Shown here: piece by piece, positions 29,617 to 64,000 of the stretch | Layout: the number at the start of each line of letters is the position of its first letter | Numbering within the stretch: the first letter of the stretch is position 1 | NCBI GenBank assembly: GCA_016872385.1 | Contig: VGZV01000001.1 | Span: 22,114 to 86,113 of the forward strand | From: SAR202 cluster bacterium | Lineage (GTDB): Bacteria > Chloroflexota > Dehalococcoidia > Lucifugimonadales > UBA3495 | Length of the DNA: 64,000 bases | Direction of reading: 5' to 3' | The notes under the pieces: generated by a model | What the model was told of the DNA's origin: nothing | The model's database searches: none | The model's input: the letters and a program-made list of their open reading frames with translations, nothing else | Translations under genes and position numbers: made by a program

Positions 29617-29785
29617 CCCCAAGGTGGGCTGATCCTTCTGGGACTTCCCTTTCTGAATTCAGGCCGGGATCCGGCTAGTTGTTCACCTGCCCCCGCGCCT
29701 GGGCGCCGGCTTTTGCCGGTGCGGCGTAAGCCTTCCTAATGCTCGCCACGGCAAGCTGGGCCATTGCCCTTTAGTGCCCATCCTA

Positions 29786-29872
29786 AAAACTCACCGCTGA
29801 GTACGCGGAGACCGCTGAGATAAAAGGAATCCAATACAAACTCTCTGCTTTCTTTGCGCTCTCTGCGGTTAT
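29786..29872. repeat. E-type repeat (AAAAACTCACCGCTGAGTACGCGGAGACCGCTGAG...CTCTCTGCGGTTAT)
   Basis: Reverse complement of the copy at 58529-58617. Related copy at 54376-54459. Confidence 0.8.
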
Positions 29873-29944
29873 TGGATAGGCGCTTATAGCTTTGCAGGAT
29901 GCTCCTGAGCACATACCCACCTTGCTGCCTTGGTTTACAAATAA

Positions 29945-30091: not shown

Positions 30092-30409
30092 GTGGATGCA
30101 GTGAAGGAAGTCATTGCGATAGTCCGTCCGGAGCGGCGAGAGGCCACACTAAACGCCATGCGCAGCGTCGGCCTTGCAGAATTGCTCCATGTCCGTGTCA
30201 TGGGCCGCGGACGCCAACAGGGCCTTCAGTACCTGCGCCGCGCCCAGGGTGAGCAGGAGGCAGGCATGGCCTTCCTTTCCAAGCGCCTCATGTCCTGGAT
30301 GGTGCCCGATGACCAGGTGGAGCAAACAGTGCGTACCCTGCTGCGAATAAATCAGTCCGGCAACCACGGCGATGGCAAGATTTTTGTCTGCCCGGTGGAA
30401 GAAGCCTGA
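30092..30409 (+). CDS. P-II-like nitrogen regulatory protein with extended T-loop and no C-terminal tail
   Basis: KEVIAIVRPER...VMGRGRQQG...GDGKIFVCPVEEA. The start is GTG 30092 or GTG 30101 (a GAGGTGG SD favours 30101). Confidence 0.8.
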   Translation: MDAVKEVIAIVRPERREATLNAMRSVGLAELLHVRVMGRGRQQGLQYLRRAQGEQEAGMAFLSKRLMSWMVPDDQVEQTVRTLLRINQSGNHGDGKIFVCPVEEA

Positions 30410-30455
30410 AGGCAGCCCTGGCAAATTACTGCTGAAGGGACGGGAGTGATACGAC

Positions 30456-31106
30456 GTGGCCAAGCGCGAAGGCGTCAACTACCCCAAGTTTAAGGATCAG
30501 TTTGCGGTGATGGACTTTGAGGCGGAGCCGTTGCCCGTGCTGTCGCTGTTCCCAATGCCGCCGGCCAGCTATTTGGAAGACTGGCAGTTGACTTTCACCG
30601 ACGTCAACAGCCAGCGGCGCGTGGTCACCGGTGCCCAACTCTTGAGTCTGCCCCGGGTGCATGGGCGCGTCCCCCTGGTATGCCAGATTTTTAACTGGTC
30701 TGAGGAGCCGGAGGTGGAGGGGGTGCGCCTGGTGGATGTGCTGGATGCCATCGGTGTAGACGCCCCGGATAGCGGCTATTTTGCCTTTCACTCCGCTGAC
30801 GGCCTCTATTTTGAAGGGCTTCCCCGCACTATGGCCCGCGACCCCCGGGTGCTGCTGGTCTTTGGGCTGGCGGGCCGCCCGCTGCCCCGGGAGTACGGCG
30901 GCCCGGTGCGCTCGCTGGTGCCCTTCCTGCAAGGCTACAAGAGTGTCAAGTGGGTGCATCTGGTGCGGGCTTACCGCAAGGACCCGGTGGGCATCAAACG
31001 GCTGCTGGGCCAGAGCCGCACCGCAGTGCTGGGTTCAGTGGGCCAGGAATTGGCTGGCGTGGTAGTGGGCCGCATGGGCGACGGCGACAGCACCCTGGAG
31101 GTATGA
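30456..31106 (+). CDS. Small cytoplasmic molybdopterin-binding oxidoreductase, sulfite-oxidase/YedY fold
   Basis: 216 aa with no signal peptide. WQLTFTDVNSQRRVVTGAQLLSLPRVHGRVPLVCQIFNWSEEPEVEGVRLVDVL and GRPLPREYGGPVRSLVPFLQGYKSVKWV match the Oxidored_molyb pattern, including the Cys ligand context. Confidence 0.7.
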   Translation: MAKREGVNYPKFKDQFAVMDFEAEPLPVLSLFPMPPASYLEDWQLTFTDVNSQRRVVTGAQLLSLPRVHGRVPLVCQIFNWSEEPEVEGVRLVDVLDAIGVDAPDSGYFAFHSADGLYFEGLPRTMARDPRVLLVFGLAGRPLPREYGGPVRSLVPFLQGYKSVKWVHLVRAYRKDPVGIKRLLGQSRTAVLGSVGQELAGVVVGRMGDGDSTLEV

Positions 31107-32353
31107 ACGTGGGGCACCGTCCAACGCTTATAGCCTCTTTCCTGCATTTTGACGTCAGTTTCATGCTCTGGGTGCTGCTGGGCGCACTGGGCGTGTATAT
31201 TGCCGAGAGCTTGGGACTTACGTCGGCGCAGAAGGGCCTCATGGTGGCGGTGCCCATCCTCAGCGGGGCGCTGCTGCGAATACCTCTGGGATTGCTTAGT
31301 GACCGCTTTGGTGGAAGGCGCATTGGCGCCGGATTGCTGGTCTTCCTGTTTTTGCCTTTGACCCTGGGCTGGCGGATGGGCGACAGTCTTCCGGCGCTGC
31401 TGGGCATTGGCCTTATGCTGGGGGCGGCAGGCGCGTCCTTTGCCGTGGCATTGCCCCTGGCCAGCCGGTGGTATCCCAAGGAGCGGCAGGGCCTGGTCAT
31501 GGGAATAGCCGCCGCGGGCAACAGCGGCACGGTCATCGCTAACTTGCTGGCGCCGCGGCTGGCTGCTTTAGTTGGATGGCACAACGTGCTGGCGCTGGCC
31601 ATGCTGCCCCTGGCGGTGGTCTTGCTGGCCTTCGTGCTTATGGCCAAGGAACAACAGCAAGTTGCATCCCAAAGGTGCCCTGCCCTTGCTGCTGGCGGCC
31701 CAAAGTTCTTGGCCCTGAAACAAGCGGACCTCTGGTGGTTCTGCCTGTTCTACAGCGTCACCTTCGGAGGCTACGTAGGGCTGAGCAGTTTCCTGCCCAT
31801 TTTCCTTAGAGACCAGTACCACGTTGCGCCAGTGACCGCTGGTTACCTGACTGCCGCTGCTGCGGTAGTAGGCAGCGGCCTGCGCCCGGCGGGCGGCTAT
31901 CTGTCCGACAAATTTGGCGGCGTGGCCATGCTCACCGCCCTGCTGCTGGGCATCAGCCTGGTGTATGTGCTAGCCAGCCGCCTGCCCGCCCTGGGCATCA
32001 TGATGGTTCTGATCATCGCCGGGATGGCCTGCCTGGGCATGGGCAACGGCGCAGTTTTCCAGTTGGTGCCTCAGCGGTTCTCTGGGGAAATTGGCCTGGC
32101 CACTGGAATTATCGGGGCCTTTGGCGGCTTGGGCGGTTTCTTCCTTCCCAATTTGCTGGGGAATGCCAGGGAAGTTAGCGGCTCCTTTGGGCCGGGTTTG
32201 CTGGTGCTGGCGGGGGCTGCCTTGACCGCACTGGTGGCGTTGCGAGTCCTGGTGCTGGTGGAAAACGGCTGGCGCCGGGCCTGGGCGCAGCCTACCCCGG
32301 CGCCTGAAGCAGTGCCGGGGAGAGTCATTATGGTCCCTTACCTGCAACCCTAG
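31103..32353 (+). CDS. narK: Nitrate/nitrite MFS porter (NNP family, NarK/NasA-type)
   Basis: 12-TM profile. NNP signatures IAAAGNSGT and GIIGAFGGLGGFFLP. ATG 31103 overlaps the upstream stop (ATGA). Confidence 0.85.
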   Translation: MNVGHRPTLIASFLHFDVSFMLWVLLGALGVYIAESLGLTSAQKGLMVAVPILSGALLRIPLGLLSDRFGGRRIGAGLLVFLFLPLTLGWRMGDSLPALLGIGLMLGAAGASFAVALPLASRWYPKERQGLVMGIAAAGNSGTVIANLLAPRLAALVGWHNVLALAMLPLAVVLLAFVLMAKEQQQVASQRCPALAAGGPKFLALKQADLWWFCLFYSVTFGGYVGLSSFLPIFLRDQYHVAPVTAGYLTAAAAVVGSGLRPAGGYLSDKFGGVAMLTALLLGISLVYVLASRLPALGIMMVLIIAGMACLGMGNGAVFQLVPQRFSGEIGLATGIIGAFGGLGGFFLPNLLGNAREVSGSFGPGLLVLAGAALTALVALRVLVLVENGWRRAWAQPTPAPEAVPGRVIMVPYLQP

Positions 32354-32388
32354 TTGAGCACTCTGGGAGGGCGGAAAGGAGGCGCACT

Positions 32389-33945
32389 ATGAAACCCGGC
32401 AACAACCCCATGGAAAAAATCAAGGCTGAGAAAGATGGCCTGGACATTCTCCAGGAGATTGACGAACTGGCCGCCAAACACGGCGGCTGGGAGACCCTGG
32501 ATCCCGGCGACCGGGAGCGCCTCAAATGGATTGGCACTTTCTTCCGCAAACCCACCCCTGGGCTGTTCATGATGCGGATACGCATCACCAACGGCCAGGC
32601 TACCAGCGCCCAGTTGCGCGCTTTGGCGGACATTGCCCAGCGGTTGGGCAACGGGGTGCTGGACTTGACTACCCGCCAGCAGGCGCAGCTCCGCGCGGTC
32701 AAAATCCAGGATGTGCCTCAAATCATTCAGGCGCTGCAAGGGGTGGATCTGACCTCCTTGCAGACCGGCCTGGATAACATCCGCAACATTAGCTGCTGTC
32801 CGCTTTCCGGCCTCACTGCCAACGAGTTGCTGGACGCTTCGCCCGTGGGCGTTGAATACACGCGGATGTTTCTGAACAACAAGGAGTTCTCCAACCTGCC
32901 CCGCAAGTTCAACGTGACCATTACCGGGTGCCTGGAAAACTGCACCCATGCCGAGACCCAGGACCTGGGTATGACGCCGGCCGTGCGCACCTCCGACGGC
33001 CAGCCCGGTTTCAACGTGGTGGCGGGGGGCAAAATGGGTTCCGGCGGTATGACCGTAGCCCAACCCCTGGACATTTTTGTCACGCCCCAAAACGCGGCAC
33101 GGCTGGCGGCCCAGGTCACTCTGCTGTTCCGGGACGAAGGCGTGCGGGAGCAACGAAACAAGGTGCGGCTGGCCTTTCTCATCCAGGCCTGGGGTGTGGA
33201 CAAGTTCCGGGCAGCCCTGGAGGACCGCTGGGGGCTTCCCCTGGAGCGGGCCGGCCGGGATGTGCGCCATGCTGTTCACACGGACCACCTGGGCGTGCAG
33301 CGGCAGAAGCAGCCTGGCATGTATTCCGTGGGCCTGTGTGTGCCCACGGGCCGCATAACCAGCGAACGGATGCAGGAGTTGGCTCTTCTGGCCGATAGAT
33401 ACGGCAGCGGCCACGTACGTTTGACCAACGCCCAGAACGCTATTCTGGTCAACGTGCCCCAGCATCGCCTGACCGCCCTGCTGTCCGAGCCGCTGCTGCG
33501 CGAGTTGTCGCCGGTGCCTTCCGCCTTCCATCGTGGGCTGGTTACCTGCACCGGCGTGGATTACTGCAACCTGGCCTTGATTGAGACTAAGGGCACTGGC
33601 CTGGCCTTGTCCAACGCCCTGGCCCGGCGGTTTCCCGGTGCATCCAACCTTACCATGCACTGGTCGGGGTGTCCTGCCGGATGCGGCAACCATCAAGCGG
33701 CGGATGTGGGGTTCCAGGGGGCCAAGGCGCGGGTCAACGGCCAGGTGGTGGATGCAGTAAGCATATTTGTGGGCGGCCGCACCGGCACCGAGCCCAAGCC
33801 TGGCGAAAAAATCATGGAACTGATACCCGTAGATATGCTGGAAGAGGTTGTGCCCGTCGTTCTGCGGCACCTGGAGGTGCTGAAAAAGGTTACCCGGGAT
33901 TCCGAGGCTGAGTCCCGTGTTTTGATGGTCCCGGTGCTGGTTTAA
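32389..33945 (+). CDS. nirA: Ferredoxin-dependent nitrite/sulfite reductase (siroheme, 4Fe-4S)
   Basis: 518 aa. Cluster-binding Cys motifs TCTGVDYC and SGCPAGCGNH, in a two-half NIR_SIR architecture. Confidence 0.85.
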   Translation: MKPGNNPMEKIKAEKDGLDILQEIDELAAKHGGWETLDPGDRERLKWIGTFFRKPTPGLFMMRIRITNGQATSAQLRALADIAQRLGNGVLDLTTRQQAQLRAVKIQDVPQIIQALQGVDLTSLQTGLDNIRNISCCPLSGLTANELLDASPVGVEYTRMFLNNKEFSNLPRKFNVTITGCLENCTHAETQDLGMTPAVRTSDGQPGFNVVAGGKMGSGGMTVAQPLDIFVTPQNAARLAAQVTLLFRDEGVREQRNKVRLAFLIQAWGVDKFRAALEDRWGLPLERAGRDVRHAVHTDHLGVQRQKQPGMYSVGLCVPTGRITSERMQELALLADRYGSGHVRLTNAQNAILVNVPQHRLTALLSEPLLRELSPVPSAFHRGLVTCTGVDYCNLALIETKGTGLALSNALARRFPGASNLTMHWSGCPAGCGNHQAADVGFQGAKARVNGQVVDAVSIFVGGRTGTEPKPGEKIMELIPVDMLEEVVPVVLRHLEVLKKVTRDSEAESRVLMVPVLV

Positions 33946-34015
33946 CACCAGCAACAGCGATCGCATGACCGTTCCGCCTGGGTATTTGAATAGCTTGTGT
34001 ATAAGGAGGCCAGCC

Positions 34016-34333
34016 ATGAAGATGATACGTGCGGTGGTCCGCCCGGAAAAAGAGGAAGCCGTAGGTGCAGCCCTGGCCAAGGCTGGGTTCCCGGCGCTTA
34101 CCAAATGGGATGTGGTGGGGCGGGGCAAGCAACAGGGCATTCAAGTGGGCAGCCACATTTATGATGAGCTGGCCAAGTCCCTGGTGCTAATAGTGGTCAA
34201 TGATGACCAGGTGGAAAAGGCAGCCAAGGTGATTCATGATGCAGCCTTCTCCAGATATCCGGGCGACGGCAAAATCTTCGTCACGCCGGTGGATACCGCT
34301 TATACCATCCGCACTGGCAAGTCAGAGCTTTAG
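34016..34333 (+). CDS. P-II-like nitrogen regulatory protein (short non-canonical T-loop)
   Basis: MKMIRAVVRPEKEE...VVGRGKQQGIQVGSHIYDE...GDGKIFVTPVDTAYTIRTG. An AAGGAGG SD precedes ATG 34016. Confidence 0.85.
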   Translation: MKMIRAVVRPEKEEAVGAALAKAGFPALTKWDVVGRGKQQGIQVGSHIYDELAKSLVLIVVNDDQVEKAAKVIHDAAFSRYPGDGKIFVTPVDTAYTIRTGKSEL

Positions 34334-38126: not shown

Positions 38127-38144
38127 AAGCTTGTATCAGAAGGA

Positions 38145-38240
38145 GACCGCTCATGGTGAGCCCGTCGAACCATGAGCGGTGCGGATACGCTCCGCCCCTT
38201 CGGCTGGCTCATGGCAAGCTCAGAGCTTGTCGAAGAGCGG
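38145..38240. repeat. C-type repeat (degenerate composite)
   Basis: GACCGCTCATGGTGAGCCCGTCGAACCATGAGCGGT ... CAGAGCTTGTCGAAGAGCGG. Confidence 0.7.
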
Positions 38241-51675: not shown

Positions 51676-52723
51676 GTGACTAACCCGATGCTTGGCCTTG
51701 CTTTACTGATATTGCTGGCAAAAGTCCTTGAGGAAGTTGCCGCCCGTCTGCGCCAGCCGCCGCTGCTGGGCGACGTGGTGGCTGGACTCCCCATGGGACC
51801 GCTGGGATTTTCCGCGGTGCACCCCAGCGATGAGCTGGAGCTGTTCATAACTATCGGTATTTTCTTCCTGGTTGGTCTGGAAGAAATTGATGTAGCTGGG
51901 TTCTTGGCAAACTTGCGCACGCGGCTGTTTGTGGCCTCGGTGGCGGCGTTTGCCGCTCCCTTCGCACTGGTTATGGTGGTCTGCCGGTACTTTGGGCTGG
52001 GTTAGACGCCGGCCATAGCCATCAGTTCCGTGGCGGCCATTTCCAGCTTGAGCGTACTGGCCAAGGTGCTGGGGGATATGGGGCGGCTTCGGGACCACAC
52101 CGGCTCCAGCTCTTTAGCATCACCGTCATTGTGGAGCTTTTGGGGCTGCTGATTGTCAGCGTGCTGACTTTCACCGCCGCGGGGGCCAGGAATTTGAGGC
52201 CCTGGAGCTTCTGTGGTTTGCGCTGGGAGTTGTAGGCTTTATGGTGGGCGGCTGGGTGCTGGGGCATTGGCTGGCGCCCCGGTTGCTGCGCCTGGCGTTG
52301 CGCTATACCAGCGCCCGGGAAATTCCCTTTGGCGTCCTGATGGGCATCCTGTTGCTCTTTGTATATTTCGGAGAGCTTAGCGGGGTCCACGGCACTATAG
52401 GCGCATTGTTGTTGGGCGTAGCAATGTCCAGGAGCGCCCACGAGTTCCACGCGGATGTGGTGAAGGGGTTCCGCAGCATTGTCTACGGGGTCTTTGTGAC
52501 CATATTCTTCGCTGGCGCCTGGTTGCGCCTGGACCTCTCCTTTTTGCAGCTTTCTGGACTGGTGGTGGCCGGGCTCATTGGCGCAACCATCATCATCACA
52601 AATATATGCCCTGCCACCCCAAGTATAGCAGTATTTAACGATGTTACTCACCGAATATTGTCATATATTCACTTATTGGGACTATTTACTGAGAAGTGGA
52701 GTTATATTTGTCGTGCTTGTTGA
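51676..52723 (+). pseudogene. Cation:proton antiporter (CPA2/Kef-type) pseudogene: in-frame TAG, two frameshifts, truncated and replaced 3' end
   Basis: LLILLAKVLEEVAARLRQPPLLGDVVAG...TAG at 52003-52005...ISSLSVLAKVLGDMGRLRD. Frame change near 52103-52107, then LQLFSITVIVELLGLLIVS. Frame change at the G5 run 52181-52185, then EFEALELLWFALGVVGFMVGGW. After about 52600 the sequence becomes AT-rich and non-homologous. Confidence 0.8.
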
Positions 52724-52829: not shown

Positions 52830-53741
52830 TTAGCCCCTTCTGGAAGGCGGAATGTCTACTCCCAGCAGGGCGCGCCGCGCCACCGCCCAGGCGCCGCGCA
52901 ATACTCCTTGCGCCGATGCCGTGTCCGGAGCCAGCGTCTTTACCGCCATGCCCTGCCCGCCGGGCAGAAGACTGGCCCCGGCCGCAGCGTTGGGGCATCC
53001 GCCAACTGCGGCGCGGACCTGATGCAGCAGAAGCTCCGCATCCCCCGCCTGCGACACGACAATGAGGGTCCCCACGGCGTATCCGTGGCCCTGGGTTTGA
53101 ATACCCAGCACGCCCCTGCCCAGGGGAGAGCGGGCTGCTGGCGAAAGGTCATAGCTTTCCCAGTACAGGATATGCCCTGCCGAGTCCTGCACCTCCAGCC
53201 GGTTTTGCAGCCGGGAATAGGCCAGGTTTTCCCCGCGGGCGGTCCGCCCCTGGGCCAGCGCCTCGCCGTAGATCAACGTGGCGCCTGGGGCTACTCTTAT
53301 GTGTGTCTGCTGGCTTAGGCGGGCGCTCTGGAAGGGTATGAGCGGCTCTGGCATGTACTCTAGACAACTGTCCTGGCCAAGGGTTAGACAGGTGTCCAGG
53401 CGTGCGCTTCCTTCCGGCATGGAATAGACTTTGGTGGCCGCCTGGGTAGTCAGGTGCGCCCTGGCCCCAGGGCCAACCTCTGCCTGCACTGTTAAGTGGT
53501 CGCCTGCCAGCAGCCCGGCCGTAGGGTTGCACAAGTAAATAAAAGCCATGTCCGGCAGGTTGTGGTCCAGGTACAGCGCCCGCTGTACCTGCAGAGGTGG
53601 GACGGTGCGCTTCCCCACCAGGCGGGTGCGGCCTTCCCGCACCGCCAGGGCCAGGTCCGCCAGTCCCTCCTGCGCCCTGGTTACGTAGGGGCAGACCTGG
53701 GTGTCTGCCCTGGGAGTCGGTTCAGCAGCGGGCCGCAACAA
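52830..53741 (-). CDS. ureD: Urease accessory protein UreD/UreH
   Basis: [23 protein letters not shown]...[14 protein letters not shown]...YMPEPLIPF. The start is uncertain. The nearest upstream canonical start in frame is TTG 53741 (the track ORF extends to 53828 and overlaps ureG). Confidence 0.8.
53685..53712. repeat. G-type GC-rich hairpin between ureG and conserved ureD sequence
   Basis: GTAGGGGCAGACC-TGGGT-GTCTGCCCTG. Related to 26262-26287. Confidence 0.6.
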
Positions 53742-54351
53742 CCCCGACTCCCCTGAGAATATGCGCCACCACTTCCTCCAGGCCCTGGCCGGTGCGGCAG
53801 TTGGTGAACAAGAAAGGCTTGCCGGCACGGACGCGGGCGGCGTCCCGCTCCATCACCGCCAGGTCAGCGCCCACGTGGGGGGCCAGATCAATTTTGTTAA
53901 TCACCAGCAGGTCGGTCTGGGTGATGCCCTGGCCGCGCTTGCGGGGGATCTTGTCGCCCGCAGCCACGTCAATGACATAAAGCTGGTAGTCGGCTAGTGC
54001 TGGACTAAAGGTCAGGGTCAGGTTGTCGCCGCCGCTTTCGATGAGCATCAGGTCCGAATCCGGATATGCCGCCGCCAGCTCCTCCGCCGCCAGCAGGTTC
54101 ATGCTGGGGTCTTCCCGCACCGCGGTGTGGGGACATGCGCCGGTCTCCACGCCGCGGATGCGGCCCAGGTCCAGCACCCCCGCCAGGGTGCGCCGCACGT
54201 GGTCGGCGTCCTCGCGGGTGAAGATGTCGTTGGTGATGACCAGGGGTTTCAGCCCGCGGGCCAGCAGGCGGGGCGCCAGGGCCTCCAGCAACGTGGTCTT
54301 GCCGGAACCCACCGGGCCGCCAATACCGACGCGGGGAATTTGTGGGGGCAT
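53722..54351 (-). CDS. ureG: Urease accessory GTPase UreG
   Basis: [16 protein letters not shown]-loop, ESGGDNL and NKIDL motifs. Confidence 0.95.
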
Positions 54352-54375
54352 GGCTTTTCTCCTTGGGGGGAAGGA

Positions 54376-54459
54376 TTAACCGCAGGGAGCGCGGGGAGAG
54401 CAGAGGATTTTTGGTTACTCTTAAAAACTCAGCGTTCTCTGCGGTCTCCGCGGTGAATT
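54376..54459. repeat. E-type repeat in the ureF-ureG spacer
   Basis: TAACCGCAGGGAGCGCGGGGAGAGCAGAGG...CTCAGCGTTCTCTGCGGTCTCCGCGGTGAATT. Confidence 0.75.
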
Positions 54460-54460
54460 G

Positions 54461-55309
54461 TTAGCTGGCAAATATCCGCAAGTCGCTGCTCTCATGGTTC
54501 ATGGCCGCAATGTCCAGCTCCGGAGTGAAGGAGGTCATCTCCCGCCAGTCTCGCTGGGCAATTTCCTGGGCCAGCTCCAGGGCCAGGGATTGCAGGCGGC
54601 GCAGAATTTCCTGGGCCTGGCGGTGGGTCATGGGCAGCAGGCGCAGCCCGGCGCTGAGCACGCCCACGCAATAGCTGTGGCAAAAAGCCAACAGCGCCCA
54701 CTGCTCCGGTATTTCCAGGCAATGAGACACTACCCCCAGGGCCACTGCGCCGGCGCCTGGCGATTCCCTGCGTTCCACCGCGGCCAGGAAGCTGCGGTGC
54801 ATGGGGTGGCTGGTAAAGGCGGCGGTCTCCTGGAGCAGCCTGCGGCCGTGCTGGCAAGAGGCGGCCCGCAGCTCCGAGGGCAATTTCAAGGCGTGCAGGC
54901 GCTGGTCAATGGCGACTACCGTTGCCAGGTCGTTATGGACGGCGGCGCGATAGGCATGGAGCAGGGCCACGCCGTCGGCGGGCAGCACCGACCAGGCAAG
55001 CTGGTGGGCCAGTAATTCCTCCACGTCGGCGGCGGCGCGCACCCAGTCCTGGCGCACCATGCCCTCCATCCCCTGGGAGTGGGCGTACATCCCCGTGGGG
55101 AAGAAGGAGTCGGATAGCTGGAGGGCGGTGAGGAAGGCCCGGCTGTGGTGGCGGAAATCCCCCCCACCCCCCTTTGCAAAGGGGGGCTTAGTTAACCCCC
55201 CTTCAGTAAGAAGGCGACTGGCTAACCATCCTTCATCAATGGAAGACCCCTCTAACCCCCCTTTTCTAAAGGGGGGTACGGGGGGATTTAGGGCCTCGCC
55301 GCTTCTCAT
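54461..55309 (-). CDS. ureF: Urease accessory protein UreF with a ~55-aa N-terminal extension encoded by two D-type repeats
   Basis: The conserved UreF body starts at FLTALQLSDSFFPTGMYAHSQGME. The only canonical in-frame start upstream of it is ATG 55309, 6 nt after the ureC stop, so the repeat copies at 55153-55293 are read as PPFRKGG...PPFAKGGGG. Confidence 0.8.
   Translation of the reverse strand: MRSGEALNPPVPPFRKGGLEGSSIDEGWLASRLLTEGGLTKPPFAKGGGGDFRHHSRAFLTALQLSDSFFPTGMYAHSQGMEGMVRQDWVRAAADVEELLAHQLAWSVLPADGVALLHAYRAAVHNDLATVVAIDQRLHALKLPSELRAASCQHGRRLLQETAAFTSHPMHRSFLAAVERRESPGAGAVALGVVSHCLEIPEQWALLAFCHSYCVGVLSAGLRLLPMTHRQAQEILRRLQSLALELAQEIAQRDWREMTSFTPELDIAAMNHESSDLRIFAS
55153..55293. 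repeat. Two D-type repeats (CCCCCC-TTT-nn-AAA-GGGGGG palindromes flanked by GGGGGGATTT) inside the ureF 5' region
   Basis: Copies at 55153-55200 and 55251-55293. Related copies at 57056-57093 and 57280-57320. Confidence 0.8.
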
Positions 55310-55314
55310 CGCAT

Positions 55315-57033
55315 CTACACCAGGAAGAATAACTGGGCCAGGCTCAGGCGCTCCGCCGGGGGCACGGTAGCCAACTCGCCGTCTACCCGCACCTGGTAGG
55401 TGTCCGGGTTTACCTCGATGTGGGGCGTGCGGTCGTTGCGCACCATCTGGCGCTTGGTGATGGTGCGGCAGCCCAGCACCGGCGCCACCATCCGCCGCAG
55501 CCCCAGCTGCTGGTGCACCCCCAGCTCGTAGGCGCGGCGGGAGACGAAGGTGACGCAGGTGCGGGCCAGGGCTGACCCCAGCGCCCCGTACATGGGCCGG
55601 TAAAACTGCGGCTCGGCGGTGGGGATGGAGCCGTTGGGGTCGCCCATCAGCGCCCAGGCCACCATGCCACCTTTGATAATCATCTTGGGCTTGGCCCCAA
55701 AAGTGCCCACCGGCCACAGCACAATATCCGCCAGCTTGCCCGGCGTCAAAGACCCCACCAGGTGGCTGATGCCGTGGGTGATGGCTGGATTGATGGTCAA
55801 CTTGGCCAGGTAGCGCAGCACCCGGAAGTTGTCATGCTCCGCAGCGTCCTCCGGCAGCTTCCCTTTCATCTGCTTCATCTTGTCGGCAGTCTGGAACAGG
55901 CGGGTAAAGTTCTCGCCCACCCGGCCCATGGCTTGGGAGTCGGAGGAGTACATACTTATGACGCCCAGGTCGTGGAGCACATCTTCCGCGGCCATGGTCT
56001 CCGGGCGGATACGGCTCTCGGCGAAGGCCACGTCCTCGGCCACGCCGGGGTTCAGGTGGTGGCACACCATCAGCATGTCCATGTGCTCGGCCAGGGTGTT
56101 GACCGTGTAGGGCCTTGTAGGGTTGGTGGAGGAGGGCAGCACGTTCAGGTGGGCAGAGATGCGGATGATGTCCGGGGCATGGCCGCCGCCCGCACCCTCG
56201 GTGTGGTAGGTGTGGATGGTGCGGCCCGCGATGGCGGCGATGGTGTCCTCCACGAACCCAGCCTCGTTCAGGGTGTCGGTATGGATGGCCACCTGCACGT
56301 CGTGGGCGTCAGCCGCCCGCAGGCAGGCGTCAATGGCGGCGGGGGTGGTGCCCCAGTCCTCATGGAGCTTCAACCCGCAGGCCCCGGCCTCGATCTGCTC
56401 CTCCAGCGGGGAAAGTTCGCTGGCGTTGCCTTTGCCCAGCAGGCCCCAGTTGATGGGCAGCGCCTCCGCCGCCTCCAGCATCCGGTGGATGTGCCACGGG
56501 CCGGGGGTGCAGGTGGTGGCGCGGGTGCCGTCGGCGGGGCCGGTGCCGCCGCCAATGTGGGTGGTGATGCCGTTGGACAGGGCGTGGTACACCTGCTGGG
56601 GCGCAATCATGTGGATGTGGGTGTCTATGCCGCCAGGAGTGGCGATAAGGTGTTCCCCGGCGATGACTTCCGTGCCCGCGCCCACCACCAGGCTGGGGTC
56701 CACTCCGTCCATGACGCCGGGGTTGCCCGCCTTGCCGATGCCAACGATGCGGCCATCCTTGACCCCCAGGTCGGCCTTGATGATGCCCAGCAGGGGGTCC
56801 ATGACGATGACATTGGTAATCACCAGGTCCAGAGCGCCGTTGCGGTTGGTGGCGTTGGGGGACTGGCCCATGCCATCCCTGGCGGTCTTGCCGCCGCCAA
56901 AGACCAGCTCGTCGCCGGGGGTAATCAGGTCCCGCTCCACCTGGCAGATGAGGGATGTATCGGCCAGCCGGAACCGGTCCCCGGCGGTGGGGCCATAAAG
57001 CTCAGCGTAGTGGCGGCGGCTAATGCGGGCCAT
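55315..57033 (-). CDS. ureC: Urease alpha subunit
   Basis: 572 aa. [41 protein letters not shown] and other urease active-site motifs. Confidence 0.97.
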
Positions 57034-57055
57034 GCTAATTAGCTCCCTTGAGGCG

Positions 57056-57320
57056 AAAATTTCCCCAACGACCTCTTGTGAAAGGGGGGAACGCTGTAAG
57101 CTCCCTTTTGATAATGGGGTACTGGTACACTTTGCGGGCGCAGCAGAAAATGAGTTTATTCGTCACACCGGCGGAAGCCGGTGTCCAGAAATGCACGAGG
57201 CAGTTGCACGCTTCTGAATTCCGGTGCAAGCCGGAATGACGAGGCCCGAAAGGACCCAGTACCGCAAATGGGGAAGGACTTAAGCCCCCCTTTCGTAAAT
57301 GGGGGTTGGGGGGATTTCCC
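57056..57320. repeat. Composite of D-type, A-type (57119-57262) and D-type repeats filling the ureB-ureC spacer
   Basis: The 309-bp spacer between ureB (stop 57343) and ureC (start 57033) consists almost entirely of recognisable repeat copies. Confidence 0.8.
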
Positions 57321-57342
57321 GCGCCGCTAAGCAACCCGCCTT

Positions 57343-57735
57343 TCATTGCAGAGCGCCTCCGCCAAACCCCCGCTGCTCCGCCGCCGCCTGCGCCCTTGCC
57401 CGCGCCTCTGGCCCGTCCAGGCCGCCGTTGGTCAGGCCGTTCAGGCCCTGCACCCGCCGTGTGCCGCCGATGGCTACCAGGGTCACATCCTTGCGGTCCC
57501 CCGGCTCGAAGCGCACTGCCGTGCCCGCAGGGATATCCAGCCGCATCCCAAAGGCGGCGGCGCGGTCAAAACGCAGCGCCCGGTTGACCTCAAAGAAGTG
57601 GAAGTGGGAACCCACCTGCACTGCCCGGTCGCCGGTGTTCCACACGCTGAGGCTCACCGTGGGCCGGCCTGAGTTAAGCTCTATCGTGCCCTGGTCGGGA
57701 AGGTAGTTGGCGGTTTCACCGGACATAAGCATCAC
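57343..57735 (-). CDS. ureB: Urease beta subunit
   Basis: [39 protein letters not shown] 57726 is the likelier start (an AGGTGA SD lies 6 nt upstream). Confidence 0.93.
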
Positions 57736-57785
57736 CTAACAGTGAGAGTCGTCCTTACGAGCGACATCCCGAATTTGCATCGAAA

Positions 57786-57873
57786 GCACCGGCTTAAGGT
57801 AGTTAGCGCATCGTTCTGGCGAAAGCCGGAACCCAGAGCGGCAACTGGATTCCAGCTTTCGCTGGAATGACGG
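57786..57873. repeat. A-type repeat in the ureA-ureB spacer
   Basis: GCACCGGCTTAAGG...CTGGCGAAAGCCGGAACCCAG...CTGGATTCCAGCTTTCGCTGGAATGACGG. Confidence 0.75.
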
Positions 57874-57953
57874 GGCCATACTAGGGTGGCTCCTCTGCCT
57901 AAAAATCTGGCTGAAAATTCGGAATGATTTATGGACAAAGGTGGTGGCAGTCC

Positions 57954-58256
57954 CTACACAATCGGGTCGTGGCAGGAGACCAGCTTGGTGCCGTCGGGAA
58001 AAGTGGCCTCCACCTGTACCAGGGGCACCAGGTCCGGCACCCCTTCCATGACCTCTTCCCGCGTCAACACCTGGCGGCCCAGCTCCATCACCTGGGCCAC
58101 GGTCTTGCCGTCCCGCGCGCCCTCCAGCATGGCCTCAGTAATCAAGGCCACCGATTCCGGCACGTTGAGCTTGAGGCCTCGCGCTTTGCGCCTGCGAGCC
58201 ACCTCCGCCGCCACGTACACCAGCAGCTTTTCCGATTCCCGGGGAGTCAGCATCAT
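57954..58256 (-). CDS. ureA: Urease gamma subunit
   Basis: [31 protein letters not shown]...100 aa. Confidence 0.95.
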
Positions 58257-58385
58257 TGCAGCACCCGCCGCCGTGAATGTATTTGCGCCATGATTATATT
58301 ACGTATTCGGCCTTCTGCGGGGCTTGACCCAAGGCGGTCATTCATCCCCCTCGCCCAATTAGCGAGCCTTGCCCGAAAAATCATT

Positions 58386-58462
58386 GTCGCACCGGCGAAA
58401 GCCGGTGCCCAGACTCTCTGTGAAGTTGCGGCTACTGGGTTCCGGCTTCCGCCGGAACGACG
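58386..58462. repeat. A-type repeat upstream of ureA
   Basis: GTCGCACCGGCGAAAGCCGGTGCCCAG...CTGGGTTCCGGCTTCCGCCGGAACGACG. Confidence 0.75.
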
Positions 58463-58528
58463 TTCTATCCCTCGGCGATATTCGGATAACCCCCGCTGGG
58501 CGGGAGAATGGGATTTAGAGCCTATCCT

Positions 58529-58617
58529 AATAACCGCAGAGAGGGTAAAGAACGCAGAGAGTTTGTATTGGATTTCTTTTAACTCGGCGTTCTCCGCGTA
58601 CTTGGCGGTAAGTTTTT
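58529..58617. repeat. E-type repeat between glnA and ureA
   Basis: AATAACCGCAGAGAGGGTAAAGAACGCAGAGAGTTTGTATTGGATT...CTCGGCGTTCTCCGCGTACTTGGCGGTAAGTTTTT. Reverse complement of 29786-29872. Confidence 0.8.
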
Positions 58618-58650
58618 AGGATAGGCACTTAGGGGGTGGGGGTAATCCTC

Positions 58651-59985
58651 CTAAAGCACCGGCAAGTACCGGGAAATTTCGTAGTCGGTCACGGTGGAGC
58701 GGTAATCCTCCCACTCCAGTTTTTTATTCTGCAGGAAGCTGGTGAAGATATGGTCGCCCAGGGCGTCATGCACCAACTCACTGCGCTCGGCCAGGATAAT
58801 GGCCTCGCCCAGGCTGCCGGGCAGCTGGCCGATGCCCAGGGACTGCCGCCGCTGGGGTGTCATTTCAAAAACGCTGCCCGTCAGGGGCGGCAGCACCGGG
58901 TAATTTTCCTGTATGCCTTTCATTCCTGCCGCCAGCATTGCGCTGAATGCCAGGTAGGGGTTGCAGGCCGGGTCCGGCGCCCGGTACTCCAGCCGGATGG
59001 AGTCCTCAAAACCGGGCTTGTAGTCCGGGACCCGCACCAGGTCAGACCGGCTCAAGTAGCTCCAGGATGCGTAAACTGGGGCTTCGTGCCCCGGCACCAG
59101 GCGCTTGTAGGAGTTAATCCACTGGTTGGTCACCAGCGTGATTTCCGGGGCGTGGCGCAGCAGACCGGCAATAAACTGCTTGGCAGATCGGGAAAGGTAG
59201 TGGTCATCGTCGTTGTCAAAAAAGGCGTTCCGGCCCTCTTTAAACAGCGATTGGTGGAAGTGCATTCCGGAGCCGTTGATGCCAGAGATGGGCTTGGGCA
59301 TAAAGGAGGCATACGCTCCTTGAATCTGGGCCAGCTCTTTAATGACCAGCTTGGCGGTCATCAGGTTATCCGCCATGGTGAGGGCATCGGCGTACTCCAG
59401 GTCAATTTCGTGTTGGCTGGGGGCGTCCTCATGGTGGGAGTATTTCACCGAAATGCCCATCTCGGCCAGGTTCAGCACGGTGTCTCGCCGCAGGTCGCTG
59501 GCGGGATAGGTGGAAAGCTGGTCGAAATAGCCGGAGTGGTCCAGCAGTTCCGGCTTCTCCGAGCTTTTCATGTAGAAAAATTCCAGTTCCGTGCCGATGT
59601 TGTAGGTGAAGCCCAAACGCACCAGCTTTTCCAGGTTGCGCTTGAGCACGTAGCGCGGGTCCCCGGCGAAGGGTTCACCCCGGGGGCGGCGGATATCGCA
59701 GAACATGCGGGCCACCGCGTTTTGCTTGGGACGCCAGGGCAGCAAGGTGAAAGTGGCTGGGTCCGGAAAGGCCCGCATATCACTTTCGTGGGAGCGGGCA
59801 AAGCCGTCAATGGCTGAACCGTCAAAGCCCACGCCTAGCTCCAGGGCTTCCTCCAGGTCGTCCACGTTGATGGCGAAACCTTTCAGGTGGCCCAGAATGT
59901 CGGTGAACCAGAGGCGGACGAATTTTACGTCCTTCTCCCTGGCTAGCCTCACCACCCAGTCCCGGTCTTTTGTCTCTGTAGTCAT
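58651..59985 (-). CDS. glnA: Glutamine synthetase, type I
   Basis: 444 aa. VKFVRLWFTDILGHLKGFAI, GFDGSAIDGF, MPKPISGINGSGMHFHQSL. Confidence 0.95.
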   Translation of the reverse strand: MTTETKDRDWVVRLAREKDVKFVRLWFTDILGHLKGFAINVDDLEEALELGVGFDGSAIDGFARSHESDMRAFPDPATFTLLPWRPKQNAVARMFCDIRRPRGEPFAGDPRYVLKRNLEKLVRLGFTYNIGTELEFFYMKSSEKPELLDHSGYFDQLSTYPASDLRRDTVLNLAEMGISVKYSHHEDAPSQHEIDLEYADALTMADNLMTAKLVIKELAQIQGAYASFMPKPISGINGSGMHFHQSLFKEGRNAFFDNDDDHYLSRSAKQFIAGLLRHAPEITLVTNQWINSYKRLVPGHEAPVYASWSYLSRSDLVRVPDYKPGFEDSIRLEYRAPDPACNPYLAFSAMLAAGMKGIQENYPVLPPLTGSVFEMTPQRRQSLGIGQLPGSLGEAIILAERSELVHDALGDHIFTSFLQNKKLEWEDYRSTVTDYEISRYLPVL

Positions 59986-60224: not shown

Positions 60225-60935
60225 CTACACGGCCAGGTACTCCCGCACCATATTCTGGTCCAGGTACTTGGCAGTTCCTTCCAGGACTATGGACCCCTTC
60301 TCCATCACATAGCAGTAGTCGGCTACGCTCAAGGCAAAGTCCAGGAATTGCTCCACCAGCAAAATGGTAGTGCTGCCCGTGTTGCCCAGTTCCTGGAGCA
60401 GCGCCTCAATCTCCTGGACTATGGAGGGCTGGATGCCTTCAGTAGGTTCATCCAGCAGCAAGAGCTTGGGACGGCGCACCAGGGCGCGGGCCAGGGCCAG
60501 CTGCTGCTGCTGGCCGCCGCTGAGCGTGCCGCCGATTTTCCTGGGGTTTACTTTGAGGGCGGGGAACAGCTGGTACATCTCGTCCACCGCTTCCAGGCCG
60601 CGCTGTTTGCTGGGCACCGGCTCTAGGCCCATGAGCAGGTTTTCGTGAATGGTCAGGTATGGGAAGATGTCCCGGCCCTGGGGCACGTAGCTAATGCCGG
60701 CCCTGGCCCGCTTGTAGGTTGGCCAGCCCGTCACGTCCTGGTCCTGGAAGGTCACCTGTCCCTGGCGGGGGCGCAGCAAGCCCATGATGGACTTGAGCAG
60801 GGTGGTCTTGCCCACGCCATTGCGGCCCATAAGGCACACCACGCCGTGCTGGGGAATGGCCATATTCACTTGGGACAGCACTACGCTCTCCCCGTAAGCC
60901 ACTGATAAGGACTGGATTTCCAGCATCTGGTCCAT
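60225..60935 (-). CDS. urtE: Urea ABC transporter ATP-binding subunit UrtE
   Basis: Walker A GRNGVGKTT and LSGGQQQQL. Position and size (236 aa) follow UrtD. Confidence 0.88.
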   Translation of the reverse strand: MDQMLEIQSLSVAYGESVVLSQVNMAIPQHGVVCLMGRNGVGKTTLLKSIMGLLRPRQGQVTFQDQDVTGWPTYKRARAGISYVPQGRDIFPYLTIHENLLMGLEPVPSKQRGLEAVDEMYQLFPALKVNPRKIGGTLSGGQQQQLALARALVRRPKLLLLDEPTEGIQPSIVQEIEALLQELGNTGSTTILLVEQFLDFALSVADYCYVMEKGSIVLEGTAKYLDQNMVREYLAV

Positions 60936-60938
60936 GTT

Positions 60939-61844
60939 TTAAGCGGTGGCTGAGGCGGAACTTCTGTGGCTGCTGGCGAGACTGGTACTGCTGGTCCCGG
61001 CAGCAGGTTCGGGCTCGCCCTCGGCCTTTACCGGGCGCTGTTTGCCGTGGCCCAGGTATGCCTTGATGACCTGGGGGTCTTGCTGCACGTCCTCCATAGA
61101 ACCTTCGCTGAGCACCTTGCCCATGTGCATCACCGTCACCTTGCGGGCCAGTTGACGCACGAATTGCATGTCGTGCTCCACCACCAGCACCGACCGGTCC
61201 TGGACAATGCGCTGCAACAGTTCGCCGGTGCGGTCCCGCTCCCGCCGGGTCATGCCCGCCACCGGCTCGTCCAGCAGCAGCAGTTTGGGGTCTTGCACCA
61301 GCAGCATCCCAATCTCCAGCCACTGTTTCTGCCCGTGGGACAGCGTGCCAGCCCGCTGGTTAACCTGTTCGGTCAGGCTTACCTGTTCCAAAGTTGCGCC
61401 GATGCGGTCGGCATCTTGAGCACCCAAGGATTTGAGCTGCGCCCCCAAGGAACTGCGGAATCCCAGGGCTACCTCCAGGTTCTGGAACACCGACAGGCTG
61501 CCGAATACAGATGGGGTTTGGAACTTGCGCCCAATTCCCAGGCGCACCAGGTCATGCTCCTGCCTGCGGGCCAGGTCAATCCAGCCGTCAAAAATTACGC
61601 GGCCCCGGCTGGGCTTGGTCTTGCCTGTAATTACGTCTATCAAGGTGGTCTTGCCAGCCCCGTTGGGGCCGATGAGGAACCGCATCTCTCCCCGGTCCAG
61701 GCTGAAATCCAGGGCGTCCAGCACAGTGAAGCCGTCAAAGCTCACCGTCAGCTTCTCTGCCGATAGGATGGGCCCGCTGCCCGCTGGGGATGCGCGGACG
61801 GCTGAAGGGCTGCTACTGGGCTTTTTGGGGAATATACTGATCAT
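60939..61844 (-). CDS. urtD: Urea ABC transporter ATP-binding subunit UrtD
   Basis: GPNGAGKTTLIDVITGKTKP, LSHGQKQWLEIG. ATG 61844 is preceded by an AGGAG SD. Confidence 0.88.
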   Translation of the reverse strand: MISIFPKKPSSSPSAVRASPAGSGPILSAEKLTVSFDGFTVLDALDFSLDRGEMRFLIGPNGAGKTTLIDVITGKTKPSRGRVIFDGWIDLARRQEHDLVRLGIGRKFQTPSVFGSLSVFQNLEVALGFRSSLGAQLKSLGAQDADRIGATLEQVSLTEQVNQRAGTLSHGQKQWLEIGMLLVQDPKLLLLDEPVAGMTRRERDRTGELLQRIVQDRSVLVVEHDMQFVRQLARKVTVMHMGKVLSEGSMEDVQQDPQVIKAYLGHGKQRPVKAEGEPEPAAGTSSTSLASSHRSSASATA

Positions 61845-61958
61845 TCCGTCTCCTGTGGGATTGGCTCCGGCAGGCCGGCACCGATTTTTTAGGTAACACC
61901 CCAAATAGTATTGGCGGATCAAAAGCCTGTTCTAAAACGCCATTAATACTTCCACGCA

Positions 61959-62035
61959 CCCTTCGACAAGCTCAGGGTGAGCGGGTTTTTTCCGCTCGTG
62001 GTGAGCTTGTCGAACCAGGAGCGGGCACTTTTAAC
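61959..62035. repeat. C-type repeat overlapping the urtC 3' end
   Basis: CCCTTCGACAAGCTCAGGGTGAGCGGGTTTTTTCCGCTCGTGGTGAGCTTGTCGAACCAGGAGCGGGC. The urtC stop (61972-61974) lies inside it. Confidence 0.8.
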
Positions 62036-63174
62036 ATGCCGCCTTGTTGCGAATCGGCCAGTTTCTTTCTGCCCAAGGCTGCCCGTACCTGTCCCAGCCA
62101 TCCCCAGCGGGGCCGCCAGCCTTCCCCGCGGAACAAGCCCATAATGCCGCCAGGGAAGACCAGCACCGCCCCTACAAACAAGGCGCCCAGGAAGTACTGC
62201 CAGATGTCAGGGAATGACTCGCTCAGCAGGCTTTTAGCGCCGTTGACCACAATGGCTCCCAGCACTGCTCCCATCAGCACGCCGCGGCCTCCTACGGCAA
62301 CCCAGATGGCTATTTCCACCGAGGGTACGATGCCCATCATGGAAGGTGATACTATGCCTACCTGGGGCACGAACAGCGCCCCGGCAATTCCTGCCAGCCC
62401 GGCAGAAAGGGTGAACACCAGGGTTTTGAGAATGGCCGGGTTGTAGCCCGAAAACCGCACCCGGTTCTCATCATCGCGCATGGCCACTAGCAGCCGTCCC
62501 AGCCGGGAAGAAATTATCCAGTGGCACAGCAAGTAGGTCAGTGCCAGGGCCGCCACGGTAACGTAGTACAGGGCCAACTGGGTGCCTGGCCTGGAAATGG
62601 GAAATCCGAAGATGGCGCTGAAGTTGGTTATGCCGTTGGTGCCTCCGGTGTAGGGCTGTTGTCCCACAAAGAGGATGCTGACAATCAGGGCCAGGGCCTG
62701 GGTTATCAGGGCAAAGTACACACCGGTGATGCGGCTGCGAAACACCAGGTAACCCAGGCCTCCCGCCAGCGCGGCAGGAATGATGAATATCATGGGCAAG
62801 GCAAACCAGGGATGCCGGAAAGGCTCCCAGAAGAAAGGCAGTTCCCGAAGGCCGCTCCAGAACATAAAGTCCGGCAGCTTGCCCCCGGCGGCTTCCAGTT
62901 TCAAGTACATGGCAAAGGAGTACCCTCCCAGGCCAAAGAACACGCCGTGGCCCAGGCTGAGCATCCCCGCATAACCCCAGATTAGGTTCAGGGACAGGGC
63001 CAGTATGGCAAAGGTCATGAACTTGCCCAGGAGCCCCATGCGGAAGCCGGAAAGCACCGCCGGGGCCAGCAGCAGCGCCAGCAGCGCCAGCGCCGGGAAA
63101 GCCCACTGGGCCAGCCACGGCTTGCGCAGGCCAGGCTGGAAGAAAGTCCGAAGTACGCCCAATCCTCTTATCAT
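61972..63174 (-). CDS. urtC: Urea ABC transporter permease UrtC (C-terminal ~20 codons supplied by a repeat element)
   Basis: 400 aa. [24 protein letters not shown] branched-chain-type permease motifs. Operon context. Confidence 0.88.
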
Positions 63175-63187
63175 GGCAAGGCCTGTT

Positions 63188-64000
63188 CTACCGGGTCCGC
63201 AGCCGCATTAGACCCGCAGGCTTCCATTGCAGGAAAAGAATCACCATGACAAAGACCAGCACTTTGCCCACCACCGCCGTGGTGCCGAATTCAAATATCG
63301 TGTTAAGCATTCCAATTATGAATGCGGCCATAATGGTGCCCGGTATTTGCCCCAGGCCGCCCAGAATCACTACTATAAAGGCATCCACTACATAAAAGGT
63401 GCCCAGCGACGGACCAATGGGGCCGATTAGCGTCAGCGCCCATCCTGCAATGCCCGCCAGTCCAGCTCCCAGGGCAAAAGTCAGGCTGTCCACCCGCCGG
63501 GTGGACACGCCCAGGCTGGAGGCCATATCCCGGTTCTGCATCACGGCCCGCATCCGGCGGCCTTCGCTGGATCGGTACATGTACCAGTAAATGCCTGCCA
63601 GGCACACCAGCACCACCAGGATAATGAAGAGCCGCTTCATGGGCAGCACCAGGTCGCTGCCCAGGGCCACGCCGCCGGAAAGCCATTGGGGGGCCACCAC
63701 CTGCACGTTGGGCGCGCCGAAGATAGACCGGGCCAGTTGCTGCAAAATCAAGCCTACTCCCCACGTAGCCAGCAAAGTGTCCAGGGGGCGGCGGTATAGA
63801 AACCGGATTAGGGACCGCTCCACCAGGAATCCCACTGCCCCGGTAACGATAAAAGCCAGAGGTATGGCGATTAGAAATGTTACTTCCGAGGAAGGTCCGC
63901 CGGTAAGGGCGCTGGCGGCAATCTGCAGGGCGTAGGTGGTATAAGCGCCAATCATGATGAACTCGCCGTGGGCCAGGTTGATGACGTTCATCAAGCCGAA
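63188..64000 (-). CDS. urtB: Urea ABC transporter permease UrtB (5' end beyond the window)
   Basis: [20 protein letters not shown]... The ORF is open to the window edge. It lies upstream of urtC on the same strand. Confidence 0.85.

Follow-up and report, generated by a model that had tools for sequence, protein, structure and literature searches.

Can short palindromic repeats settle inside a tightly packed operon, and what becomes of the copies that arrive where no spacer is available to hold them? The question is raised by a urease operon in a 64-kb stretch of DNA (the window in what follows) from a metagenome-assembled genome (MAG) of the lineage Dehalococcoidia, labelled SAR202 cluster bacterium by the National Center for Biotechnology Information. 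On its minus strand the genes run ureA-ureB-ureC-ureF-ureG-ureD, the order given in the initial annotation of this DNA and borne out by Pfam matches for all six (E 1e-35 to 1e-77), and repetitive extragenic palindromic (REP)-type repeats lie both between the genes and inside two of them. We consider it probable, from sequence comparison, that this is a functional ureABCFGD operon into which REP-type repeats were inserted, and that the in-frame copies are translated as N-terminal additions to UreF and UreD. Translation would then start at ATG 55309 for ureF and at TTG 53741 for ureD, and ureF translation would be coupled to that of ureC.

The repeat at the 5′ end of ureF, called D-type here, is a ~48-nt double-stem palindrome with the consensus CGAAATCCCCCC-AA-CCCCCCTTTGCAAAGGGGGG-CGA-GGGGGGATTTCG, and two copies of it lie between the ureC stop codon and the conserved part of UreF:

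55307–55317, minus strand: putative coupling site of the ureC stop and the ureF start, TAG-ATGCG-ATG, with the ATG 5 nt after the ureC stop
55136–55309, minus strand: putative repeat-derived ureF extension of 58 codons, MRSGEALNPPVPPFRKGG...KPPFAKGGGGDFRHHSRA
55245–55289: D-type copy 1 inside ureF, from pattern search and alignment, read as NPPVPPFRKGGLEG
55154–55204: D-type copy 2 inside ureF, read as KPPFAKGGGGDF; the GGWGDF/L segment of the related loci L001, L002 and L006 is orthologous to its right arm
54461–55135, minus strand: conserved core of ureF, beginning at FLTALQLSDSFFPTG (Pfam PF01730, E = 4e-35)

A scan of in-frame codons agrees with the initial annotation that ATG 55309 is the only canonical ureF start upstream of the LQLSDSFFPTG motif; it is the sole in-frame ATG, GTG or TTG between the ureC stop and FLTALQLSDSFFPTG, and the open reading frame (ORF) that it opens ends at 54461 and encodes 282 aa, a sequence identical to that of an NCBI protein from a MAG with the SAR202 label. 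The extension has no stop codon in this frame versus five in each of the other two. AlphaFold gives UreF a predicted local distance difference test score below 50 over residues 1–50 and above 90 over most of the core, and the extension is thus predicted to be disordered. That the two D palindromes are read through as an extension of UreF had also been proposed, and we find support for it mainly in the relatives of this operon, from which translation itself is deduced.

Relatives with the same gene order, ureABCFGD, were compared, the nearest genomes being Dehalococcoidia MAGs. In neighbor-joining trees of UreC, alone or with UreF, the window forms a clade with L001/L090, L002, L004 and L006 (UreC 92–94% identical), with L003 as sister and L007 in another lineage; L107 was left out as a close relative because its ureF is not next to ureC. 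In all six repeat-bearing loci (the clade and L007), the ureC stop is followed after 3–7 nt by an ATG in the frame of the UreF core, and this is also true of L003, which supplies the comparison with a repeat-free operon that had been suggested: its operon is compact, its ureF starts as TGA-GGA-ATG, and only 13 codons separate this ATG from FLAALQL. In the five clade members the frame remains open through 38–76 codons of palindromic repeats, and over all six loci the repeat-filled stretches (121–231 nt) hold no stop in 322 in-frame codons versus 30 stops in 636 off-frame codons; single shuffled gaps remain open with a probability of 0.08–0.38 each. Four of the five clade members have the right arm of the D element at one and the same position (GGWGDF/L, with GGGGDF in the window); upstream of it, the window has a second D copy, L004 and L006 have an ‘H-type’ hairpin, and L002 has a third family. 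The extension has thus changed length several times, always keeping the frame. Distant loci with an expanded ureC/ureF gap differ from the clade and L007, since in 13 of 14 the gap has in-frame stops and a proximal ATG, so that the insertion lies upstream of the start (Fisher p = 2e-4, in a test that takes no account of the common descent of five of the six loci).

Against clade members, the ureF core has dN/dS of 0.24–0.35 at dS of 0.58–0.77, and is under purifying selection. These values bear on whether ureF, or the whole accessory set, lost its function through the insertions, leaving the long ORF as meaningless read-through. Such a loss would fit the break in a tight gene coupling that is a class-wide trait (the ureB/ureC gap is 309 nt in the window and 1–4 nt among ~50 Dehalococcoidia loci), but we judge it very unlikely, because the constraint on the core persisted after a dS of ~0.6–0.8 since insertion, and because the six genes are intact with strong Pfam matches, UreG has its CPH motif, and the AlphaFold core is confident.

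Some related proteins carry repeats in places where a choice of start codon does not matter. In L006 (the Baikal-deep-G113 MAG), the H-type hairpin GGGATTAGGAGATTAGGGGAT ... ATCCCCAAATCC is present twice in one ureF, at 5440–5510 and 4925–5000; one copy lies in the 5′ extension and the other interrupts the middle of the UreF core without breaking the frame and adds ~45 residues between helices. Likewise, the UreD body of L001 (~3500–3535) and L004 (~7520–7555) contains, after LAVR, a palindromic insertion that keeps the frame (GGTCCTCCCTTGAAAGGAC ..., read as GPPLKGRGEGRG) and is absent from the window and from L003. Because the second L006 copy and the L001 and L004 insertions are located inside the protein body, their translation is unavoidable. 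In addition, a repeat family CTCCCCCTTGGTAAGGGGGAG ATACAGAGGGGGTGGTC ... that fills the ureA/ureB gap of L004 (3381–3647) recurs within the UreF extension of L002 (4180–4270), where it is read as translated.

Several observations weigh against a translated extension in the window. Five of the six supporting loci share ancestry and are not independent. By our own reading the D-type consensus is stop-free in all six frames, so part of the open frame comes free. Before ATG 55309, the Shine-Dalgarno-like motif amounts only to a poor GGTG, where relatives have GAGG or GGGAG. In the window considered by itself, the absence of another start codon is weak evidence, as a shuffled window gap has a chance of ~0.10 of being open, and of ~0.03 after multiplication by 1/3 for the reading frame. 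In L002, L006 and L007, a GTG or TTG is present 13–21 codons before the core and could shorten the translated extension. Finally, Di Nocera et al. (2013; PMC3733652) reported intragenic REPs, including some at ORF N-termini, and warned that many of the N-terminal ones may really be extragenic. In contrast to that warning, the comparative data argue that the window copies are coding.

The weak motif at ATG 55309 and the internal candidates in three relatives also suggest another start, non-canonical or internal. The one in-frame near-cognate codon in the extension is ATT 55240, with a Shine-Dalgarno-like GAGGGG 6 nt before it, and from there D copy 1 would be an untranslated leader and only D copy 2 would be coding. 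We regard this as unlikely: ATT is very rarely used to start translation, every relative keeps the coupled ATG at its position and in its frame, and the sequence before the internal candidates is open as well. Even with this start, translation would have to run through D copy 2, as the sequence from there to the conserved helix 1 of UreF contains no start codon at all.

A sequencing or assembly error is a different matter, because the extension contains C6–C7 and G6–G7 runs. One extra G after a GTG inside D copy 2 would turn AAGGGGGGTGGGGGGGAT into MGGDFRHHSRAFLTALQL and by our own reading give a UreF of typical length, in which case the present frame would be an artefact. The same DNA was, however, recovered in contigs from five independent sequencing runs and assemblers (100% identical, save for one mismatch in one contig), so that neither the homopolymer runs nor the reading frame can be put down to assembly; moreover, L001, L002 and L006 have the same GTG, again out of frame. 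On these two grounds a frameshift or assembly error was rejected, and we hold it to be extremely improbable.

Returning to the reading in which the in-frame repeats are translated, the 5′ end of ureD offers a second, smaller case:

52830–53741, minus strand: ureD, with a putative TTG start and a 20-nt overlap with ureG (Pfam PF01774, E = 7e-51)
53685–53714: G-type repeat, a GTAG-tagged REP, at the 5′ end of ureD, read as RADTQVCPY

The G-type repeat has a GTAG tag and an 8–9-bp stem, GTAG GGGCAGAC CTGGGT GTCTGCCC on the plus strand, and its two copies in the window, at 53685 (+) and 26287 (−; ~26255–26290), share stem and flanks. Because the amino-acid motif GLADL(T/A)LAVR is conserved in UreD, translation must begin upstream of it, and the only canonical starts there are TTG 53741 and TTG 53738. 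A ureD start that overlaps ureG by 14–29 nt is found class-wide, in nearly all of the ~50 loci; TTG 53741 is at the modal −20 position, and TTG is also at −20 in L001, L002 and L004. The ureG stop is 55 nt from the GLADL motif in the window compared with a modal 22 nt, and the distance from the ureD start to GLADL exceeds the modal one by 33 nt (11 codons). This excess is in frame and contains the 27–30-nt GTAG REP, which fits an in-frame REP insertion and supports the earlier proposal that a start at TTG 53741 puts the hairpin inside the coding region.

At the remaining junctions the repeats lie between genes:

58385–58629: leader repeats between glnA and ureA, a CGTC-REP dimer (58385–58462) and a 110-nt E-type repeat (58520–58629); fold −54.8 kcal/mol, z = −4.7
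57811–57872: A-type inverted dimer in the ureA/ureB spacer, CGTC ATTCCAGC GAAA GCTGGAAT CCAG and a diverged partner
57281–57319: D-type copy in the ureB/ureC spacer, AAATCCCCCC AA CCCCCATTT ACG AAAGGGGGG ..., with 90% identity over 39 nt to the ureF copy at 55153–55190
57161–57241: A-type CGTC-REP inverted dimer in the ureB/ureC spacer, with units from 57161 (+) and 57241 (−); fold −47.3 kcal/mol, z = −3.1
57054–57089: degenerate D-type copy, CCCCCCTTTCACAAGAGGTCGTTGGGGAAATTTTCG, at the end of the ureB/ureC spacer immediately before the ureC ribosome-binding site; from alignment
54370–54459: E-type-like copy in the ureF/ureG spacer (109 nt), from alignment to the 110-nt repeat; fold z = −2.3

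The A-type unit consists of CGTC, an 8-bp stem, a 4-nt loop and CCAG, 28 nt in all, and in the operon its units are paired as inverted dimers. The ureA/ureB spacer of 218–227 nt holds units 57811–57836 and 57845–57872, which form an 18-bp stem with an RNA fold of −52.6 kcal/mol (z = −4.1). The initial annotation described repeats at every junction of a colonised operon. The A copy, the D + A + D series, the D copies of ureF and the G hairpin were all found, but ureG and ureD have no spacer between them, and the match of the E-type copy is weaker: it is too diverged to give a significant match in blastn-short, and its assignment is the weakest of the four. Colonisation is confirmed as far as the repeats go, but it is not confined to the operon, as about half of the window gaps of at least 40 nt (15 of 32) carry repeats that recur at other places in the window. 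Repeats are abundant in the genome in general, and what stands out is their presence inside an operon. Compared with the ~50 class loci, the window is also expanded between ureA and ureB (218 nt versus mostly 8–40 nt) and from the ureC stop to the UreF FLxALQL motif (179 nt versus a modal 39–42 nt).

Could these repeats be RNA elements that set the relative expression of operon segments? This is possible, albeit tentative, and it is compatible with insertion and translation of the repeats. Stable hairpins at the 3′ end of each of ureA, ureB and ureF would shield the upstream mRNA from decay or cause pausing, and in the early part of ureF the G/C hairpins and Pro-Pro codons would hold back UreF synthesis relative to UreC. 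Same-strand intergenic REPs are thought to act as RNA elements (PMC3733652), and the operon and leader dimers at 57161–57241, 57811–57872 and 58385–58462 are very stable, with RNA folds of −47 to −55 kcal/mol (z −3.1 to −4.7). Moreover, all four D-type copies of the 64-kb window lie within the urease operon, and D copies are shared across the clade at the ureB/ureC, ureF 5′ and ureF/ureG positions. Nevertheless, the repeat family at a given junction differs from relative to relative, the operons of L003 and of most of the class are compact and free of repeats, and some copies are degenerate, the D copy at 57054–57089 folding no better than shuffled sequence. The operon spacers contain neither intrinsic terminators (a G+C-rich hairpin with a T run) nor promoters, the terminator total being at or below the shuffle expectation, and no operon spacer matched an Rfam family. 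It is the stability of the hairpins that makes a regulatory role in mRNA stability or UreF throttling possible. A stronger version, in which the ureF 5′ segment was co-opted as a throttle on urease maturation that sets or, by slippage, switches the amount of UreF per UreC, is in our view rather doubtful. It would act through the stable G/C hairpins, Pro-Pro codons and C6–C7 and G6–G7 runs just after the coupled start, and if true it would explain both the in-frame retention across the clade (dS ~0.6–0.8) and the persistence of D copies at three operon positions.

The explanation that we favour, insertion of selfish repeats with translation of the in-frame copies, would proceed as follows. At least four families of short, non-autonomous palindromic REP-type repeats would have inserted into the operon. 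The spacers that can be opened (ureA/ureB, ureB/ureC, ureF/ureG and the glnA/ureA leader) would absorb repeats between genes, each downstream gene having its own Shine-Dalgarno-like motif (AGGTGA for ureB, GGGAG for ureC and AAGGAG for ureG), and the repeats there are probably co-transcribed as stable RNA hairpins that may affect the mRNA. ureF and ureD have no such spacer: 5 nt separate the ureC stop from the ureF start, the start of ureD lies within the last part of ureG, and both genes presumably depend on coupling. Hence the sole landing site that would be tolerated at these two genes is the N-terminal linker, which follows directly on the start codon and is under little constraint. In-frame, stop-free insertions alone would survive there, and G+C-rich palindromes are easily stop-free. 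The result would be a disordered UreF tail, derived from two D palindromes, ~45 residues longer than that of the repeat-free sister and presumably neutral or nearly neutral, and a UreD with ~11 extra residues that include the GTAG REP.

With regard to the repeats themselves, the window contains 14 CGTC hairpins compared with 1.4 in shuffles, and 12 of the 14 have the architecture CGTC + 8 bp + 4 nt + CCAG or CCAA; the copies are dispersed over ~12 sites in 64 kb. The stem starts with AT in six of these 12 units and with AC, GC or GT in the other six. By their sequence, the A and G types would qualify as CGTC and GTAG REPs, the copy number of the latter being weakly supported by two copies. The D and E types have neither tag. 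The E-type is a 110-nt repeat at 58520–58629 and 29773–29881, with the diverged copy between ureF and ureG. The D pattern occurs five times in the window versus 0.13 expected. The D copies of the window and of the loci of relatives are all located in ure operons, but D-like copies on other contigs lie next to tctA/arylsulfotransferase genes and next to ABC/MFS genes. These unrelated gene contexts led us to reject the D type as a urease-specific regulatory element. Because only 21 candidates in 5.8 billion proteins share D-peptide words, the family is rare; it is best explained as a dispersed, low-copy family whose clustering in the operon comes from ancestry and local duplication. No A-type repeats were found in the urease loci of relatives, so CGTC-REP colonisation is specific to the window lineage, and together with the shared D copies this points to D insertions that are old and A insertions that are recent and confined to the lineage. 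The elements do not resemble miniature inverted-repeat transposable elements, which are IS-derived, mostly 100–400 bp long and bounded by terminal inverted repeats and target-site duplications, with D at ~48 nt, A units at 28 nt and no target-site duplication evident in the aligned copies. No REP-associated tyrosine transposase, the IS200/IS605-like enzyme whose gene REPs flank, and no other transposase was seen among the window ORFs scanned, in 64 kb of genome. A further abundant palindromic family, with the core CTCATGGTTCGACAAGCTCACCACGAGCGG and inverse CCTGAGCTTGTCGAAGG, is present in many intergenic gaps, at 1601–1785, 7543–7640, 12881–13011, 21670–21760, 25218–25280, 38140–38235 and 61945–62021; one copy lies in the 49-nt gap between an ABC ATPase gene (60939–61922) and a permease gene (61972–63174).

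The other genes of the operon are as follows:

57954–58256, minus strand: ureA, urease gamma subunit, 100 aa (Pfam PF00547, E = 1.5e-44)
57343–57726, minus strand: ureB, urease beta subunit, 127 aa from ATG 57726 (Pfam PF00699, E = 2.5e-44)
55315–57033, minus strand: ureC, urease alpha subunit, 572 aa (Pfam PF00449 and PF01979)
53722–54351, minus strand: ureG, GTPase, 209 aa (Pfam PF02492), with the AAGGAG motif 8 nt upstream

For ureB, GTG 57735 is the longest possible start; ATG 57726 has the AGGTGA motif 6 nt upstream, and the 127-aa start is also used in a public gene call. Upstream on the same strand lie glnA (58651–59985) and four ABC-transporter genes (60225–63994), which from their Pfam ABC and permease matches we read as urtBCDE, so that the cluster would be urtBCDE-glnA-ureABCFGD. 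Antisense to ureC, window positions 56583–56884 (+) match the full Rfam model 5_ureB_sRNA (RF02514; 98.8 bits, E = 1.5e-25), which originates from a Helicobacter pylori antisense RNA overlapping the urease large-subunit gene; the match most likely reflects conserved coding sequence and not a small RNA of this organism. Just downstream of ureD, adjacent plus-strand ORFs at 51676–52005 and 52241–52723 (109 and 160 aa), both of the Na+/H+ exchanger family in public gene calls, look like a fragmented or truncated antiporter gene. Elsewhere in the window, P-II nitrogen-regulator genes at 30092–30409 and 33965–34333 flank long ORFs (30950–32353 and 32389–33945) in a second nitrogen-related cluster (30092–34333, +), and a long ORF at 22996–24975 contains two tandem units of ~255–258 nt (23817–24329, 81% identical) that are probably a duplicated protein domain.

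The absence of ureE, also pointed out in the initial annotation, holds at the operon, as no ORF lies between ureC and ureF and no UreE was seen among 20 further, mostly small, ORFs scanned in the 64-kb window. It is not peculiar to this operon but a trait of the whole class, as ureE lies between ureC and ureF in none of the ~50 Dehalococcoidia loci examined. The urease operon of Mycobacterium tuberculosis, ureABCFGD without ureE, has the same order, with ureF directly after ureC as in the window. In two distant loci the ureC/ureF junction is much enlarged: L041 (3753–4933) has two minus-strand ORFs there that look by eye like an IS630-like transposase, and L028 (4002–4780) has a pair of small ORFs. 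We rejected a ureE hidden in these large gaps, since no ORF there, read by eye, resembles UreE. Across the class, mobile DNA thus seems to have landed repeatedly at the ureC/ureF junction.

Taken together, this is a known phenomenon in a new lineage, a comparatively well-supported example and not a new kind of system; in the literature we found no earlier description of intragenic REPs in this lineage. It would provide a well-controlled case in nature, from beyond Rickettsia and Proteobacteria, in which selfish palindromic repeats turned into coding sequence, backed by a repeat-free sister operon, several diverged descendants and a structural reason for the sites at which insertions survive. 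Annotation of Chloroflexota MAGs is affected, because gene callers disagree on the ureF and ureD starts and the L004 ureF in JGI is truncated into the conserved motif. The UreF extension also predicts specific tryptic peptides, SGEALNPPVPPFR, GGLEGSSIDEGWLASR and LLTEGGLTKPPFAK, for a metaproteomic test of REP translation. Urease biology as known is unchanged.

Among known systems, REPs and bacterial interspersed mosaic elements inside E. coli operons such as malEFG are transcribed intercistronic palindromes that can stabilise upstream mRNA. The window repeats likewise lie between cistrons; they differ in that the window spacers are much larger and have replaced a tight translational coupling. 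A structural match is seen with the CGTC- and GTAG-tagged REPs of Di Nocera et al. and the REPIN dimers of Bertels and Rainey (2011; PMC3116915): the A-type has the CGTC tag, 8-bp stem, 4-nt loop, CCA(G) tail and inverted dimers, the G-type has the GTAG tag and 8–9-bp stem, and most copies lie between same-strand or converging genes. The CGTC families are described with a stem of 8–9 bp, a loop of 4–5 nt, a CCA tail and complementary A-T residues at the first two stem positions, and only about half of the window stems have such a start. For the tolerance of additions to UreF, the parallel is the UreE-UreF fusion of Klebsiella aerogenes (Kim, Mulrooney and Hausinger 2006, as cited in PMC3792862). 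Because that fusion, a large N-terminal addition by the citing paper's account, is functional, such additions to UreF can be tolerated; it is artificial and adds a folded domain, whereas the addition in the window is natural, repeat-derived and predicted to be disordered. In behaviour, the window repeats match the intragenic GTAG and CGTC REPs of Di Nocera et al. and also the Rickettsia palindromic elements (RPEs; Ogata et al. 2000 and 2002), which, as outlined in the review PMC10969869, are short palindromes of several families per genome that lie in frame in functional genes and add peptide segments. The same in-frame insertion is seen here in the frame conservation at ureF and ureD, the selection on the ureF core and the insertion in the UreF body of L006, from which translation is deduced. 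According to the same outline, the RPE host is an obligate intracellular alphaproteobacterium and RPE-1 is ~100–150 nt long; the window host belongs to a free-living Chloroflexota lineage, its D element is ~48 nt, and the window insertions, unlike the RPEs so described, lie in N-terminal linkers beside putatively coupled translation starts. RPE-4 and RPE-6 carry a reported CGTC tag that the D type is without (PMC3733652). We therefore draw the parallel with RPEs as an analogy in behaviour and not as family membership. As the review describes them, RPE insertions persist only where the protein fold tolerates them, as those in the window would do.

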